Shown: positions 1 to 8,818 of the stretch, in pieces
Numbering within the stretch: the stretch's first letter is position 1
Layout of the letters: every line of letters starts with the position of its first letter
Assembly (NCBI GenBank): GCA_963703305.1
Contig: OY969808.1
Location: forward strand, 2,903,422-2,967,421
DNA from: Vulcanimicrobiota bacterium
GTDB taxonomy: Bacteria; Vulcanimicrobiota; Vulcanimicrobiia; Vulcanimicrobiales; Vulcanimicrobiaceae
Length of the DNA stretch: 64,000 nucleotides
Direction of reading: 5' to 3'
Notes under the pieces: model-generated
The model's database searches: none
What the model saw: only the letters and a program-made list of their open reading frames with translations
What the model was told of the DNA's origin: nothing
Position numbers and translations under genes: made by a program

Positions 1-1391
1 CAGCCGCGCGCATCCGGCGTCGGCAGCGGATTGATGAGCGCGTGCAGCTTCTCGACGATCCGGCCTTGCACGGCCGCCGCGTTCTCGCCGCGCGCGACCA
101 CGACGTCGGCTTTGACCTTCACGGTCTTATAGCGAACCCAATCGACCTCGCACACGATGCCGAGCGGACGCCGCTCGTCGACCGTCGTGCGGATGGACTC
201 GAGCGTATCGGCCGTTTGGATGACTTGCAGGGCTGCCGCCGTGACGGCACCGGTCGTACGCGCTTCCAACTCCAGAAACTCCGGCACCAGCAATACCGCG
301 ACCGTGCCGGGATCCGCGTAGTTCCATAGCTCGTGCTTGGGATAGGCGCGGGCGCGCGCGACGCTGGCGTTGCGGCAGGCGATCAGTTCGAAATCGCGCG
401 CGGTGACCGCTCGCTGCAGCGAATGGAATTCGCGCGGCCCGCGCGCGAGCGCGTTGGCCAGCGTTTCACCACTGCGTCCGCCGGAGGCTGCGGCCGGATT
501 GGTGACGGCGAGCGCGGCGCCGGCAACCTGATCCTTCAGCGTCGTCAGGCTTCCCGCGACGACGTTGCCGGCCGAACCGCCGCCGGTTGCGTAACTCGCA
601 GCGATCTTTTTGCCTGCCGGCGGAACGCGGCCGATAAATGACGGCGCTTCCGCCAGTTGGCCGCCGTCGCTCTCGCGAAGCTGCGGGGCAAACGTGATTT
701 GACCGCTCGCGCGGTCGCAGACGTACACGCCGGCTTGCGGATCGGCGTCGGCGAACGAATCGACTTCGCGCCAGATCTCGTACGCGACGCCGTCGATTAC
801 GCGCGCATCGCTGCGGGCGAGCGACGTGGTATCGCCCATTTCGACGGCGATCTGCACGTCGAACGAGGTATGGCTCGGGCCGACGATCGGAACGTGCGCG
901 ACGTAGTACGTTTGACTGCCTTCGCCCGTCCCCGTGCCGATGATCTCGTTCTCGGTGCGGTCGGCTTGAATGGCGACTGCGTTGACGGTCGTCTGCCCCG
1001 GTGCGATCGTCGCGTCGTCGACGGTTGAGAACACGATCTCCGCGGTGCCGCCGGAGAGGCGCGACGCGCCGACGCGCGTTCCCCGCGGAATGACGATCTT
1101 CGCAGCGGCCGGCTGCTGCGAGGTGAACGCCAGCGTTACGGTCGCCGCACTGGGCGGATAGAGCGTCGCACCGATCAGGTTCAAGAACTCGACGTATGCT
1201 TTTTCGGGAATGCGGTTAAAGCGGAAGAGCATCTGCTCGGCGATATAGGCAAACGCATCGATCAGCACCATGCCCGGATCGCCCGGTGCCGGATCTTTCC
1301 ACGCGTTGCCCTCGGCCTTGATGCGTGCGACCGCGCCGGCCACGAGTTGGTCGAAGGTCCGATCGTCGAGGTTGGGACTCGGAAGCGGCAC
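1..1391 (-). CDS. baseplate J-like protein (Afp11 / phage gp6-gpJ family), truncated by left window edge
   Basis: Not in the ORF track because it runs off the edge. My reverse translation from GTG at 1391 gives VPLPSPNLDDRTFDQLVAGAVARIKAEG..IDAFAYIAEQMLFRFNRIPEKAYVEFLNLIG.., typical of a baseplate J N-terminus. Open frame to position 1. Starts 1 nt after the gp25-like stop. Confidence 0.8.
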   Translation of the reverse strand, partial: MPLPSPNLDDRTFDQLVAGAVARIKAEGNAWKDPAPGDPGMVLIDAFAYIAEQMLFRFNRIPEKAYVEFLNLIGATLYPPSAATVTLAFTSQQPAAAKIVIPRGTRVGASRLSGGTAEIVFSTVDDATIAPGQTTVNAVAIQADRTENEIIGTGTGEGSQTYYVAHVPIVGPSHTSFDVQIAVEMGDTTSLARSDARVIDGVAYEIWREVDSFADADPQAGVYVCDRASGQITFAPQLRESDGGQLAEAPSFIGRVPPAGKKIAASYATGGGSAGNVVAGSLTTLKDQVAGAALAVTNPAAASGGRSGETLANALARGPREFHSLQRAVTARDFELIACRNASVARARAYPKHELWNYADPGTVAVLLVPEFLELEARTTGAVTAAALQVIQTADTLESIRTTVDERRPLGIVCEVDWVRYKTVKVKADVVVARGENAAAVQGRIVEKLHALINPLPTPDARG

Positions 1392-1392
1392 G

Positions 1393-1806
1393 TTAGACCT
1401 GCAGCTGCACGGGGACGGAGACGGCATCGACGACCGCCGTCGTTCGGGAGCGGTACGTCACGTCGACGACCAGCCGCGTCATGTCGTCGACGTCCGGACC
1501 GGCGCCGATGGAGACGATCTCGACGCGCGGTTCCCACCGTTCGATGGCCGTTCGCACCTCGTGCATCGCCAAGCCGGCGGTGGTGTCGTCGTTTGGAGCG
1601 AAAACGAAACGCTCCAGCGGGCATCCGTACGTCGGCCGCATAACCCGTTCTCCCGGGGTCGTCGAGAGCAGCAGCAGAATCGACTGACGGATTGCGAGGT
1701 CGTCACTGACCGTATCGATGCGGCCGTTCGGCGTTACTTGGAATCCGGATGCGGCGCCGCTTTCGCTGACGGCGAATCGCAGGGTGGTGTAGCGGGCTTG
1801 CGTCAC
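1393..1806 (-). CDS. gp25-like baseplate wedge protein (GPW/gp25 family, Afp9-like)
   Basis: ORF 1393..2001, trimmed to the GTG at 1806 that overlaps the upstream TGA (GTGA). Sequence ..DDLAIRQSILLLLSTTPGERVMRPTYGCPLERFVFAPND..MHEVRTAIERWEPRVEIV.. matches the gp25 lysozyme-like fold family. Confidence 0.85.
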   Translation of the reverse strand: MTQARYTTLRFAVSESGAASGFQVTPNGRIDTVSDDLAIRQSILLLLSTTPGERVMRPTYGCPLERFVFAPNDDTTAGLAMHEVRTAIERWEPRVEIVSIGAGPDVDDMTRLVVDVTYRSRTTAVVDAVSVPVQLQV

Positions 1807-2153
1807 GTTGCGATACTCACGTGGGCTTGCCCGGCATCGGCAACGGTATAGAACACCGTTCCGGGAGGCGTTCCGTCGGTGTGGCCTTTTACGGTTGCGA
1901 GACACACGGCGTGGCCGTCGATCTTCACGAACGTCGAATAGCCTTCTTCGACAACGAGCGTGTGAGAGCACGGCTTGGTGGCCGGGGTGAGATTCGGACA
2001 CATGTGAATCGTCCTGCCCTGCGGATCCGTGGCCACGAGCATCTTTCTGCCGTCGATCGTCACCAGCGTTTGCGACGGCTTGTTTTCAACTTTGCCGAGA
2101 TGATCGCACTGCAGCTTTGCATCTTCGGTAATGACGAGCGGTGCGCTGCTCAC
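1803..2153 (-). CDS. PAAR-like / spike-tip small protein (Afp10 position)
   Basis: 116 aa. GTG start overlaps the VgrG-like stop. Two ..TIDGRKMLV.. / ..KIDGHAVCL.. beta-repeat motifs plus several Cys/His. Sits between the spike and gp25 genes. Confidence 0.5.
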   Translation of the reverse strand: MSSAPLVITEDAKLQCDHLGKVENKPSQTLVTIDGRKMLVATDPQGRTIHMCPNLTPATKPCSHTLVVEEGYSTFVKIDGHAVCLATVKGHTDGTPPGTVFYTVADAGQAHVSIAT

Positions 2154-7082: not shown

Positions 7083-8009
7083 TCAAGTGTGCTTGATGAC
7101 CGGGAACGGGTGGACGGGGAACGGGTGAACGATCACCTGCCGCAAGCAGGCGCCGTTTTCGCGCACCGACGACCCGGGTTCGACCCACGTTCCTGAGGCC
7201 GGACTCAGGCTGGCAATGCCCCAGACGGTCCCCCCGACGCAAAAGACGCTGAGCGTCGGCGGAATCGGCACCAAACCTACGGCCGTAATGACGTTGTTCA
7301 CCGAGCTGCCGCGCGGCGGAAGCTGCGGAACTTGCGTTCCCTGCACGCGTACGCACACCGATACCGCTTGCGGCGACGTAGTGATCGGCGTCCCGGCCGC
7401 GACCGTTTGCGTAGCGATTTGTCCGACGGTGTTCGTCGGACCGTACACCGGGCAGTTACCATCGGTAATCGTCAGGTTCGCAAAGGAATCTTGGGCCGCC
7501 GCAAGCGTTTGTCCGCTCAAATCGGGCATCGTCGCAACCGACGCTTTTTTATGCGCCCCCACGTACCAAAACACGCCGACGAGAATCGCAATGAGCGCGA
7601 CGGCCGCGATAACGATCCACCATGGAAACGGCGCGTGCGTCGGGCCGGCGACCGAGTACGTGACGGTCGGCCCTTCGGTGAAGTCTACGTCGGGAGTGTC
7701 CGCCAGCGCCGCAATAAGTTGAAATGAATAATCTTTGGGCGCGGCACCGTTCCCGGGCGTAACGACGACCGTAACTTGCTGCGTGGTACCCGGAGAAAAT
7801 TCGAGCGACGGTGCGCCGCGGATCGAATACCACGCTTTGGTCGACGAATCGGAAGGCTTGATTGAAAACGCGGCGCGTCGCGCGCCACCCGAGACGTTGG
7901 TGACGGAATACGGAACTTCGGCAGTTCCATCTGCTCGTAAGTTGACTCGCGCGTTCGGAGTCGTGACTTGAAAAGACGGCAATCGACCCTCACTCCCCGG
8001 ATCAACCAA
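7083..8009 (-). CDS. single-pass membrane protein: N-terminal Ig-like domain, TM helix, two PASTA-like repeats
   Basis: 308 aa. TM segment WWIVIAAVALIAILVGVFWYV. PASTA-like segments MPDLSGQTLAAAQDSFANL..VGQIATQTVAAGTPITTSPQAVSVCV and VPQLPPRGSSVNNVITAVGL..VWGIASLSPASGTWVEPGSSV. Start uncertain: TTG at 8009, or TTG at 7982 preceded by GGGAG. Confidence 0.6.
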   Translation of the reverse strand: MVDPGSEGRLPSFQVTTPNARVNLRADGTAEVPYSVTNVSGGARRAAFSIKPSDSSTKAWYSIRGAPSLEFSPGTTQQVTVVVTPGNGAAPKDYSFQLIAALADTPDVDFTEGPTVTYSVAGPTHAPFPWWIVIAAVALIAILVGVFWYVGAHKKASVATMPDLSGQTLAAAQDSFANLTITDGNCPVYGPTNTVGQIATQTVAAGTPITTSPQAVSVCVRVQGTQVPQLPPRGSSVNNVITAVGLVPIPPTLSVFCVGGTVWGIASLSPASGTWVEPGSSVRENGACLRQVIVHPFPVHPFPVIKHT

Positions 8010-8137
8010 CCAGTTCCGAATCTAGCTCTCTATGTTTCGGACACCGTCGATTCTTCGGTGGGCCTTTAGACCCTAGGGTCCATCCGCTCGTTTGCCGGTT
8101 CATCAGGCGGCCCTTCGGCCGAACGCTTCCCGCTCGC

Positions 8138-8818
8138 TCAGGACGGCGAACTTGGTGCAACGTCGATCACGATTACAACGTCGCCGGTCGAGTGGGCGGC
8201 GCGCCTTACCTCGACTTCCCGGCCCTTCGCGCGCGCGCGCAGCGTGAGATCGATTGCGTTCGTGACTCCCTCGATCACGAAGCGGCCGTCGGCTCTCGCC
8301 GTGGCCGTTCGTCCCAAATCGGCGATATCGATCACGGCGCCGGCGATCGGCGTACCGTCTTTCGCCGTTACCTGTCCGGCGATTGCTTGCATGGGAAGCG
8401 CCGACAAAACGGCGGTGCGCACCGGCGGTGCGAGGCGTTCGTCGCTCACCTCACTTGCCGTTGCGTGAAGAATGAAACTCGCGCGGGCTGCAAGATTGAG
8501 CGCAGACCATGCGGCGGCAGCAGGGGCGCCAAAGTCGAGAGAGTACTGCGGTTGTGTGCCGGCTTCTGCGATGACTTTTCCGAGCAGTGCGTGCGCCGCA
8601 ACCGGATCCGGTCCGCACGACGTGACGAGATAGCCAAGACGAAGCTGCACGGGAGGGGTTCGTCCGGATGGAACCGCCGCAGGCCGCTCGATCTCGAATA
8701 AATAGGCAAAAAGCGTCAGCTCGGACGCATCGTCGGACGGGCGCGCGAAGCTGATGGTCGCGCCGTCGACGACGTCTTTTAGCCAATCGCGGAGTTGTTC
8801 GTCGATCGATTCGATCAT
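8138..8818 (-). CDS. DUF4255 (Pvc16/Afp16 N-terminal domain) protein with C-terminal carboxypeptidase-regulatory-like beta-sandwich
   Basis: 226 aa. MIESIDEQLRDWLKDVV..LFAYLFEIE..LRLGYLVT is DUF4255-like. The C-terminus ..GQVTAKDGTPIAGAVIDIADLGRTATARADGRFVIEGV.. is CarboxypepD_reg-like. First gene of the CIS operon. Confidence 0.8.
   Translation of the reverse strand: MIESIDEQLRDWLKDVVDGATISFARPSDDASELTLFAYLFEIERPAAVPSGRTPPVQLRLGYLVTSCGPDPVAAHALLGKVIAEAGTQPQYSLDFGAPAAAAWSALNLAARASFILHATASEVSDERLAPPVRTAVLSALPMQAIAGQVTAKDGTPIAGAVIDIADLGRTATARADGRFVIEGVTNAIDLTLRARAKGREVEVRRAAHSTGDVVIVIDVAPSSPS

Follow-up and report, generated by a model that had tools for sequence, protein, structure and literature searches.

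A compact chromosomal contractile injection system with a linked transmembrane PASTA protein in an uncultivated Eremiobacterota soil bacterium

Introduction

The contractile injection systems (CISs) that are closest to the one described here, among those with solved structures, act from inside the cell that builds them. The CIS of Streptomyces coelicolor (CIS-Sc, subtype IId; 8BKY, 9GTP and 9GTR) is cytoplasmic and fibre-less and needs the protein CisA for contraction and for function under stress (PMC12237407). The CIS of the haloarchaeon Halogeometricum borinquense (9EZM), which works like a type VI secretion system (T6SS), is docked on the cytoplasmic membrane, and this mode correlates with the presence of a conserved membrane protein whose gene lies upstream of the core cluster (PMC11566945). 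The mode of action of a CIS, which may be extracellular, T6SS-like or suicidal, depends on how it meets a membrane, and authors in the field caution that this mode is rarely predictable from sequence alone (PMC12998442). Here we report on a stretch of 64,000 nucleotides (the window) from the 4.54-Mb chromosome of a Vulcanimicrobiota bacterium (contig OY969808.1 of assembly GCA_963703305.1, positions 2,903,422 to 2,967,421). Its region 1-8818 is a complete chromosomal CIS of a distinct compact lineage, and its host is an uncultivated soil bacterium of the Eremiobacterota (WPS-2).

For the extracellular CISs (eCISs), Chen et al. (2019) found Afp1/5, 2/3/4, 7, 8, 9, 11, 15 and 16 in more than 85% of loci, and Afp15, the AAA+ ATPase, was present in both eCIS lineages I and II (PMC6899500). 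The filter used by Geller et al. (2021) was at least ten core genes. We found no paper that links CISs with the Eremiobacterota or with PASTA domains. A preprint on a CIS of the Haliangiales was considered as a match and set aside, as it describes a different, ATPase-bearing system.

Results

Core proteins of the machine

The identity of the cluster in 1-8818 as a CIS is essentially certain. It consists of ten consecutive minus-strand open reading frames (ORFs), all intact and coupled (Table 1), and of the eCIS core of Chen et al. (2019) the counterparts of tube, sheath, Afp7, Afp8, Afp9, Afp11 and Afp16 are all present. A preliminary description of this DNA, made from the letters and the ORFs, had listed the same ten genes and called the cluster a CIS and neither a T6SS nor a prophage. 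All ten ORFs are present at the places it gave, Pfam supports most of the families it named, and its overall identification is borne out. In the profile searches that it had proposed, run here with Pfam and NCBIfam, the cluster proteins matched CIS core families except for the bitopic membrane protein, which matched PASTA, the Pro/Ala-rich protein and a protein of 116 amino acids (aa).

In sequence searches of the PDB, the sheath was closest to those of S. coelicolor (8bky/9gtp, E = 1.3e-92) and of the haloarchaeal CIS (9ezm, 1.1e-89). Afp3 followed at 3e-51, so that Afp3, Pvc2 and the sheath of the thylakoid-anchored CIS (tCIS) of Anabaena all stood at about 1e-50, and the sheaths of pyocin (5e-16) and T4 (4e-8) were far more remote. 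The spike (NCBIfam VgrG_rel, 2.4e-43) likewise had its best PDB match in the S. coelicolor CIS (9gtr_q, 5.3e-16), and Cis11 of the same species (9gtp_1K, 8.8e-55) was the sole PDB sequence match of baseplate J. The term Afp/PVC-type, which the preliminary description had used, is therefore imprecise for this cluster, as these three proteins are closest to S. coelicolor (about 1e-90 against about 1e-50 for the sheath). It had also taken the DUF4255-first order and the single sheath for Afp/PVC features; this does not hold, because afp16 and pvc16 are found towards the 3' end of the respective operons, and the Afp and PVC systems have three sheath paralogues.

The tube protein matched NCBIfam TIGR02241 (2.2e-32) and, in the PDB, the tube proteins of several CISs. 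Baseplate J is about 864 aa long in full and ends in a BNR/Asp-box beta-propeller-like extension; the full protein, read from a near-identical contig, matched NCBIfam TIGR02243 (6.3e-78) and F510_1955-like (4.6e-11), and Asp-box motifs were found in it. The cap matched Pvc16_N with 30.4 bits against a cut-off of 27, over the N-terminal part of the model only, followed by a CarboxypepD_reg beta-sandwich, and the same two-domain cap is found in relatives. The LysM match of the tube initiator (1.4e-3) is below the Pfam cut-off, and this protein is 41-74% identical among the compact loci described below. Homologues of gp25 have 137-143 aa.

PDB sequence searches gave nothing meaningful for the cap, the 116-aa protein, the Pro/Ala-rich protein and a DUF922 protein encoded further left. 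The 116-aa protein also had no Pfam or NCBIfam match, and neither PAAR_motif nor DUF4280 was detected in it at E <= 1. Its AlphaFold2 model had a mean predicted local distance difference test (pLDDT) score of 83.7, and the top Foldseek matches of the model in PDB and BFVD were PAAR or spike-tip proteins, at weak E values of 0.015-2.3 and TM-scores of 0.4-0.6. They include 9jg9_B, 4jiw_D, 4ku0_D and phage PAAR/COG4104 proteins, and five of the six best PDB matches, as well as the named matches in BFVD, are PAAR or spike-tip proteins. In an alignment of relatives Cys16, His18, Cys52 and Cys62 are invariant; with 52-71% identity across compact loci the protein ranks with the best-conserved components, and its gene lies between those of VgrG and gp25. 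From this predicted fold the protein is probably a PAAR-like spike tip.

The Pro/Ala-rich protein contains 17% Pro and 27% Ala, has a length of 310-495 aa in relatives and shows no Pfam similarity. In the relatives examined its gene is always found between those of the tube and the tube initiator, and the proteins share a conserved amphipathic N-terminal motif and a C-terminal WPELP...R..L...W pattern around a variable low-complexity middle. Both the position and the pattern of the termini would fit a tape-measure-like length determinant, which is our guess for its role.

A compact lineage

More than 8000 homologues of the sheath were found at E <= 1e-10. The best 120, from many phyla, are all about 400-434 aa long and 55-99% identical, and the closest species-representative genomes by sheath are Candidatus Tumulicola and another metagenome-assembled genome of the Eremiobacterota, at 73% identity. 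Gene tables and tblastn revealed a module that is constant in loci of Eremiobacterota, Acidobacteriota, Myxococcota and Desulfobacterota. It runs from the cap (with CarboxypepD_reg) through the sheath, a single tube, the variable 310-495-aa protein and CIS_tube/LysM to the spike, the protein of about 115 aa, gp25, a baseplate J of about 860 aa and gpI. All members have one tube gene and a sheath of 400-430 aa. The recurrence of this order in more than 15 independent loci of several phyla is far beyond chance. A sheath phylogeny, which the preliminary description had suggested, was made as a rough neighbour-joining tree of 84 sheaths on identity distances, with no support values; in it the compact loci group in a single clade apart from the ATPase-bearing loci of Actinomycetota and Chloroflexota.

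Two variations were seen among close relatives (numbers with L denote the loci compared). The block of the 158-aa, polytopic, cap and bitopic gene(s) (8138-10001) is inverted against the sheath operon when compared with relatives of 66-73% identity, namely L003 (6100-9900), L006, L007 and L008, in which cap and sheath genes are not co-transcribed. In L003 (19051-20339), L004 (10005-11293) and L006 (19143-20479), gpI is followed by a muramidase/chitinase-like gene of glycoside hydrolase family 19 (GH19; Glyco_hydro_19) and a gene of about 184 aa. The lineage of the window has genes of 95, 83 and 183 aa and the DUF922 gene in this slot. In the relatives the two genes might encode a cell-wall effector and the protein that gives immunity to it, or else a lysis enzyme.

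The left end of the cluster and the missing ATPase and fibres

The window ends within the baseplate J gene. Verbatim copies of the sheath and gp25 proteins were found on a public metagenome contig (ENA ERZ25039482 contig_12777, L001), which is 99.7-99.8% identical to the window and reaches about 9.8 kb beyond gp25. In this left flank the rest of baseplate J is followed by a P2 gpI/Afp12-like gene of 183 aa, the genes of 95, 83 and 183 aa, and the DUF922 gene. The DUF922 protein (154 aa, 7.4e-20) has an HEQGH motif and no signal peptide, and its family is listed as zincin-like (PMC3650047). Beyond it, in L087, the metabolic genes for an amidohydrolase, a phosphoesterase and a glycosyltransferase mark the end of the cluster. 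No large toxin cargo is encoded in the cluster or in the left extension.

L001 shows an ORF of 1048 aa that fuses baseplate J and gpI, with a break of the reading frame at 18114-18246. We rejected the fusion as a frameshift artefact, likely a long-read assembly indel, because, once the frame is switched near L001:18140, baseplate J regains a normal C-terminus whose end overlaps the start of gpI in a GTGA. In a relative of 87% identity, baseplate J (864 aa) and gpI (183 aa) are encoded by two genes. A third assembly of the same locus (L088) is 97% identical over the shared region, with several CIS genes split.

The preliminary description had expected the remaining core genes to the left, that is, an Afp12-like gene, the AAA+ ATPase, fibres and cargo. 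The gpI/Afp12-like gene is indeed there and DUF922 is a possible cargo, but neither the ATPase nor fibres were found. With two tblastn queries for the Afp15-like ATPase (from L020 and L039), no homologue was detected in the window, L001, L087 or L088; in the window and its left extension there was none even at E <= 10, the best E value being 0.13. Within 10 kb none was found in any of the loci L003-L018, among which are all compact loci; of the more distant loci, whose sheaths have about 500 aa or more, most do have one within this distance. The only match of a Walker-A pattern in the window is the unrelated GGDEF/NB-ARC/TPR protein at 22851-26000. The eight-subunit eCIS core is therefore incomplete here, with Afp15 as the missing member. 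A fibre-like (Afp13-like) gene was likewise absent from the cluster, the left extension and every compact locus examined. In its ancestry the cluster is a member of the Afp/PVC/CIS-Sc superfamily, and it lacks the ATPase and the fibres of a textbook eCIS.

A bitopic membrane protein linked to the cluster

The bitopic protein is built of an Ig-like N-domain (residues 1-115), an FPWW motif with a transmembrane (TM) helix at about 117-143, and a PASTA ectodomain. Its AlphaFold2 model, made from an alignment of four sequences and poor in the C-terminal half, has an N-terminal beta-sandwich at 1-111 (pLDDT 70-88) and a TM helix at 121-144, and Foldseek returned generic Ig-like folds only. The PASTA part matched PknB sensor domains (7.7e-26), and NCBIfam PknB_PASTA_kin matched the TM and PASTA region; outside the PASTA part, a profile search of the PDB showed no sequence similarity of the family to solved chains. 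The PASTA Ser/Thr kinases (PknB/PrkC/Stk1) follow the same plan, with a cytoplasmic module, a single TM helix and PASTA repeats outside the cell. However, the bitopic protein has no kinase domain, and its Ig-like module is genetically tied to a CIS baseplate.

A word-indexed search with the N-domain gave three matches, and an exhaustive phmmer search exposed a family whose members fall into at least 1426 clusters at 50% identity, of which 575 matched at E <= 1e-10. The match lies at or near the protein N-terminus in nearly all of the 150 members listed, and total lengths vary from 136 to 783 aa. We examined 134 representatives. PASTA forms the ectodomain in 69 of them; the others have Laminin_G, B_lectin, ricin, discoidin, tectonin, PD40, Big or Cys-rich ectodomains, and one has the head domain of a lactophage receptor-binding protein (RBP). 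Most of those without PASTA are lectin-like, and modules of these kinds typically bind ligands outside the cytoplasm. A strong TM helix lies near residue 122 in every representative; it is the only TM segment in 128 of them, and an N-terminal signal peptide is present in none. The K+R value is 2.25 before the helix and 1.68 after it, and cysteine makes up 0.14% of the N-domain and 1.7% of the C-terminal part, a difference of about 12-fold. The position of the helix, the absence of a signal peptide and the two biases predict an N-in/C-out topology.

A hidden Markov model of the N-domain and TM helix detected the family in 10 of the 14 compact loci; three of the remaining four are truncated and one (L006) is complete. 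The slot after gpI is where P2-like tails encode their fibre. The bitopic gene stands directly in this slot in L010, L012, L013, L014, L016, L092 and L093, and it adjoins the cap gene in the clade of the Eremiobacterota. Two or three tandem paralogues are found in L003, L010 and L092; those of L092 (9077-13505) are three genes after gpI, the third with an odd GTP_EFTU match in Pfam. Of four members of the family that were taken from the library search, three sit in compact CIS loci and the fourth is an orphan tandem pair. The conserved N-terminus, the swappable C-terminus, the position after gpI and the tandem copies thus follow the logic of a tail fibre or RBP, to which a membrane helix has been added, and we propose that the bitopic protein is a membrane adaptor or 'transmembrane fibre'.

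Other envelope proteins accompany the clusters. The polytopic protein beside the cap gene matched no Pfam family; its homologues (47-70% identical) adjoin the cap gene in L003, L004, L006, L007 and L008, and from this linkage it is a possible accessory membrane component whose membership is tentative. Homologues of the 158-aa protein (37-44% identical) occur in L003, L004, L007 and L008. In loci of the Desulfobacterota type a small signal-anchored protein is encoded after the bitopic gene (L013, 14766-15332; L016, 20263-20922), which suggests further lineage-specific envelope partners.

Operon structure and flanking genes

The preliminary description had read the cluster as one translationally coupled module, and each junction that it listed is exact in the sequence. 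The sheath stop TAA (5755-5757) abuts the tube ATG at 5754; the tube stop and the start of the Pro/Ala-rich gene are at 5317 and 5315; this gene overlaps the next by 13 nt at 4341-4353; ATGA stands at 3610-3613; the 4-nt overlap at 2150-2153 is GTGA, as is that at 1803-1806; and the gp25 stop and the baseplate J start are at 1393 and 1391. The starts assumed for the spike (ATG 3613, 487 aa) and gp25 (GTG 1806, 137 aa) agree with the lengths of homologues, and homologues also back GTG 5315 for the Pro/Ala-rich gene. The bitopic gene most likely starts at TTG 7982 (299 aa) and not at 8009, as indicated by the MxSFQVTTPN start of homologues and by the public gene call. On identical DNA, public calls cut the Pro/Ala-rich gene to 165 aa, and the CIS_tube/LysM gene is missing from the listed products of L001; automated annotation thus under-reports core genes of this cluster.

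The G+C content of the window is 62-68%. A promoter scan found no sigma-70-like promoter, terminator-like matches were not clearly above those of shuffled sequences, and the window contains no Rfam family and no tRNA.

Table 1. Features of the contractile injection system cluster and adjoining genes (positions in the window)
Feature	Position	Strand	Basis or remark
Baseplate J (Afp11/Cis11-like), N-terminal 463 codons	1..1391	-	Pfam Baseplate_J 6e-17; gene runs off window
gp25/TssE-like baseplate wedge, 137 aa, GTG start in GTGA overlap	1393..1806	-	Pfam GPW_gp25 7.7e-24
Probable spike-tip protein, 116 aa, PAAR-like fold	1803..2153	-	AlphaFold2 model and Foldseek; no Pfam family
VgrG/gpD-gp5-like spike, 487 aa, ATG in ATGA overlap	2150..3613	-	Pfam Phage_GPD 2.6e-10, Phage_base_V 1.3e-18
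Tube initiator (Afp7/Cis7-like), CIS_tube and C-terminal LysM-like motif	3610..4353	-	Pfam CIS_tube 1.1e-9
Pro/Ala-rich protein, 324 aa, candidate tape measure	4341..5315	-	Position, conserved termini
Inner-tube protein, single, 145 aa (T4 gp19/Afp1-5 family)	5317..5754	-	Pfam Phage_T4_gp19 9e-35
Contractile sheath, single, short, 427 aa	5755..7038	-	Phage_sheath_1C 5.7e-19, Phage_sheath_1 3e-14
Bitopic Ig/TM/PASTA membrane protein, 299 aa	7083..7982	-	Pfam PASTA 6e-7; AlphaFold2
Cap/tail terminator (Afp16-like)	8138..8818	-	Pvc16_N (DUF4255) 3.9e-7 and CarboxypepD_reg 9.6e-10
Polytopic (about 7 TM) membrane protein, divergent from cap gene	8837..9571	+	Hydropathy; membership tentative
158-aa protein, N-terminal signal/anchor helix	9525..10001	-	Sequence; membership tentative

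Genes of phages and T6SSs were sought in the cluster, in about 30 proteins from larger ORFs of the 55 kb on its right side and in 9.8 kb to its left. No capsid, portal, terminase or integrase gene was found there, as the preliminary description had said for the cluster and its right side, and no TssB/TssC pair, TssM, TssK or ClpV either. The phage genes or T6SS membrane-complex genes that, by its account, would have made the cluster a prophage, a tailocin or a T6SS thus did not turn up on either side, including the leftward extension on the near-identical contig.

The right flank is made up of housekeeping genes, namely a sedolisin-like protease, leucine catabolism, GGDEF/NB-ARC, transporters, a two-component system, pyrD/pyrF and ArgRS. 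The protease gene (10038-12461, +; 807 aa, with the pro-kumamolisin activation domain of sedolisin-type S53 peptidases) lies directly upstream of the CIS accessory genes, and this adjacency is not kept in relatives. An HMG-CoA lyase-like gene, an ORF of 1189 aa that fuses biotin carboxylase and biotinyl domains, and a carboxyltransferase (12430-19028 and 27580-29163) are leucine-catabolism-like and confirm an ordinary chromosomal context. The protein at 22851-26000 (+; 1049 aa) joins a GGDEF diguanylate cyclase with NB-ARC (STAND NTPase) and TPR parts, an unusual signalling architecture. Two DUF4097 'toastrack' proteins (40764-41978, -; 45055-46290, +) bracket a HAMP histidine kinase/response regulator pair and a DUF6249 protein, and this block (40761-46290) may be an envelope-stress module.

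Discussion

The usual assembly ATPase and fibres are missing from this cluster, but it has a membrane-spanning protein with a cell-wall-binding outer domain, so that the CIS probably works at a membrane. The reading that we prefer, tentatively, is a membrane-docked CIS that is assembled without an ATPase and in which the transmembrane PASTA protein takes the place of the fibres. The baseplate would assemble around the spike, and tube and sheath would polymerise to a length set by the Pro/Ala-rich protein until the DUF4255 cap closes the particle. No dedicated ATPase would be needed, as in phage tails and tailocins. The particle would not be a free projectile guided by fibres; instead, the Ig-like N-domain of the bitopic protein, which occupies the tail-fibre slot after gpI in most relatives, would dock it to the inner face of the cytoplasmic membrane. 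Outside, the PASTA ectodomain would bind or sense peptidoglycan, and relatives would use lectin-like domains. Contraction of the sheath would then drive the spike through the envelope, with the HExxH zincin of the DUF922 family at the end of the operon as the most likely passenger. The outcome, by analogy, could be either antagonism of neighbours, T6SS-like as in haloarchaea, or death of the producer triggered by stress, as with CisA of Streptomyces.

A bolder extension of this reading, which is possible but more doubtful, is that across the ATPase-less lineage the 'tail fibres' have been turned into bitopic membrane proteins, so that recognition of ligands outside the cell positions and triggers a firing machine in the cytoplasm. 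The Ig-like N-domain would sit on the baseplate and a single helix would cross the membrane, with interchangeable PASTA, lectin or RBP-like tips whose ligands might be fragments of peptidoglycan or foreign glycans.

Two known systems show how a CIS can be held at a membrane. The haloarchaeal CIS has the second-best sheath match to the window, and a polytopic membrane protein is also found beside the cap gene here. However, the archaeal cluster has an ATPase and Cis13, and its anchor candidate has six TM segments and a cytoplasmic domain of about 150 aa (PMC11566945), whereas the polytopic protein of the window has almost no soluble domain and the main anchor candidate is the bitopic protein. 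The tCIS of Anabaena (7B5H) is anchored on the internal face of a membrane by baseplate-associated membrane proteins (PMC8894136), and its sheath (5e-51) and spike (1e-13) are detectably related to ours. It belongs to another lineage, the clade with AlgoCIS and T6SSiv (PMC12998442), and has an ATPase.

Several observations weigh against a membrane-docked machine. The N-domain of the bitopic protein has no similarity to any solved CIS component that Foldseek or the PDB profile search could detect, and its contact with the baseplate is suggested by gene linkage and by the logic of a conserved N-terminus with a variable C-terminus. The complete compact locus L006 has no bitopic gene within 10 kb. 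Conversely, no CIS gene was seen up to about 9 kb from two tandem members in L091 (8064-10961), so that members of the family also occur outside CIS clusters or else act in trans. Where the host is a diderm, a PASTA or lectin ectodomain would be exposed to the periplasm and not to a target cell. A gene for an ATPase could lie elsewhere in the 4.54-Mb chromosome, the GH19 muramidase after gpI in some close relatives could, by analogy with pyocins, be a lysis enzyme that releases particles, and the roles given to the Pro/Ala-rich protein as tape measure and to DUF922 as cargo are guesses from position.

The strongest competitor, which we consider possible although unlikely, is a classical extracellular CIS used like Afp, PVC or a tailocin, i.e. 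assembled in the cytoplasm, released by lysis and bound to its target from outside. The membrane proteins would then be accessory, for example in the control of lysis or release, or unrelated. The DUF4255 cap, the CIS_tube/LysM initiator and the baseplate J/gpI wedge are common to eCISs, and the beta-propeller extension of baseplate J could act as a receptor binder that makes fibres unnecessary. The GH19 muramidase at the operon end of L003, L004 and L006 resembles a pyocin lysis cassette, and phage tails and R-type tailocins also assemble without an AAA+ ATPase. However, no compact locus examined has a fibre gene, the slot after gpI is held by a family with a strong TM helix in all 134 representatives, and no evident holin or spanin is present in the cluster of the window. 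The nearest solved systems are intracellular, and Afp15, kept in more than 85% of eCIS loci, is absent. The Afp and PVC systems (Serratia and Photorhabdus; subtype Ia) share tube, sheath, Afp7, Afp8, Afp9, Afp11, an Afp12-like protein and the Afp16 cap with our cluster, but their sheaths are similar only at about 1e-50, and they alone have two tube paralogues, Afp13 fibres, the Afp14 tape measure, the Afp15 ATPase and large toxin cargo genes (in part PMC6899500). The extracellular label of the preliminary description can thus not be derived from the genes, and the conserved membrane proteins argue for a membrane-associated mode.

A further reading, improbable though partly overlapping with the membrane-docked one, is a cytoplasmic CIS of the Streptomyces type for regulated death of the producer, in which the bitopic PASTA protein would be an analogue of CisA that senses damage of the cell wall and brings the CIS to the membrane, where it would fire into the envelope of its own cell. 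In PknB-type kinases PASTA domains serve as cell-wall sensors, and no large toxin cargo is encoded. CIS-Sc gave the best solved matches for sheath, baseplate J and spike. On the other hand, the Streptomyces sheath has about 530 aa against 427 aa here, and the Streptomyces cluster has two tube paralogues and keeps an AAA+ ATPase, whereas we found one tube gene and no ATPase. The baseplate J of the window has an extra beta-propeller-like extension of about 330 aa, and the varied lectin and RBP-like ectodomains of the bitopic family suggest diverse external ligands rather than one stress signal. CisA is also an N-in protein with its C-terminus outside, a single TM segment and a ligand-binding-like ectodomain; it is encoded beside the baseplate genes of a CIS without tail fibres and is needed for firing under envelope stress (PMC12237407). 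When the two proteins are compared, which was done by architecture only, CisA has a solute-binding-like ectodomain and a disordered N-region, in contrast to PASTA and a conserved, folded Ig-like domain here.

A decaying prophage tail module or an R-type tailocin is very improbable. The sheath, gp19 tube, gpD/gpV spike, gp25, gpJ and gpI are homologues of phage-tail proteins, and R-type pyocins resemble the system in having ATPase-independent contractile tails and, like some relatives of the cluster, a muramidase. But neither the 9.8 kb to the left nor the larger ORFs scanned over 55 kb to the right showed head, terminase or integrase genes, a tRNA and an att-like context are likewise missing, the ORFs are all intact and coupled, and the module recurs in differing chromosomal contexts across phyla. 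The sheath is far nearer to CISs (1e-92) than to pyocin (5e-16) or T4 (4e-8). Pyocins encode fibres and their chaperones, chaperones for the tape measure and a holin/spanin cassette; the DUF4255 cap and the CIS_tube initiator, which are typical of CISs, are missing from them. A canonical T6SS is next to impossible: the VgrG-like spike, the PAAR-like tip, the gp25/TssE-like protein and weak TssF and TssE profile matches below cut-off recall one, but the sheath is single and unsplit and no TssM/J/L, TssK, TssA or ClpV was found in the cluster, in the larger ORFs scanned in the rest of the 64 kb or in the left extension.

The compact lineage is very large and environmental, as shown by more than 8000 sheath homologues and by a bitopic family of at least 1426 clusters. 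It would fall below the filter of Geller et al. (2021), and the ATPase that Chen et al. (2019) recorded in more than 85% of their loci is missing from it; it may therefore be under-represented in catalogues. Two supposed rules of eCISs, the Afp15 ATPase and the fibres, are broken by this lineage, which offers a testable candidate for the anchor and the trigger. With 10-11 genes it would be a minimal contractile machine, from a phylum (Eremiobacterota) for which we found no CIS paper, and it would therefore be of interest for engineering, for ATPase-independent assembly and for the loading of cargo. If transmembrane proteins do serve as its fibres, the lineage would represent an undescribed organisation of CISs and a third independent solution for anchoring them in a membrane, besides TssJLM and the anchors of the tCIS/CisA type.

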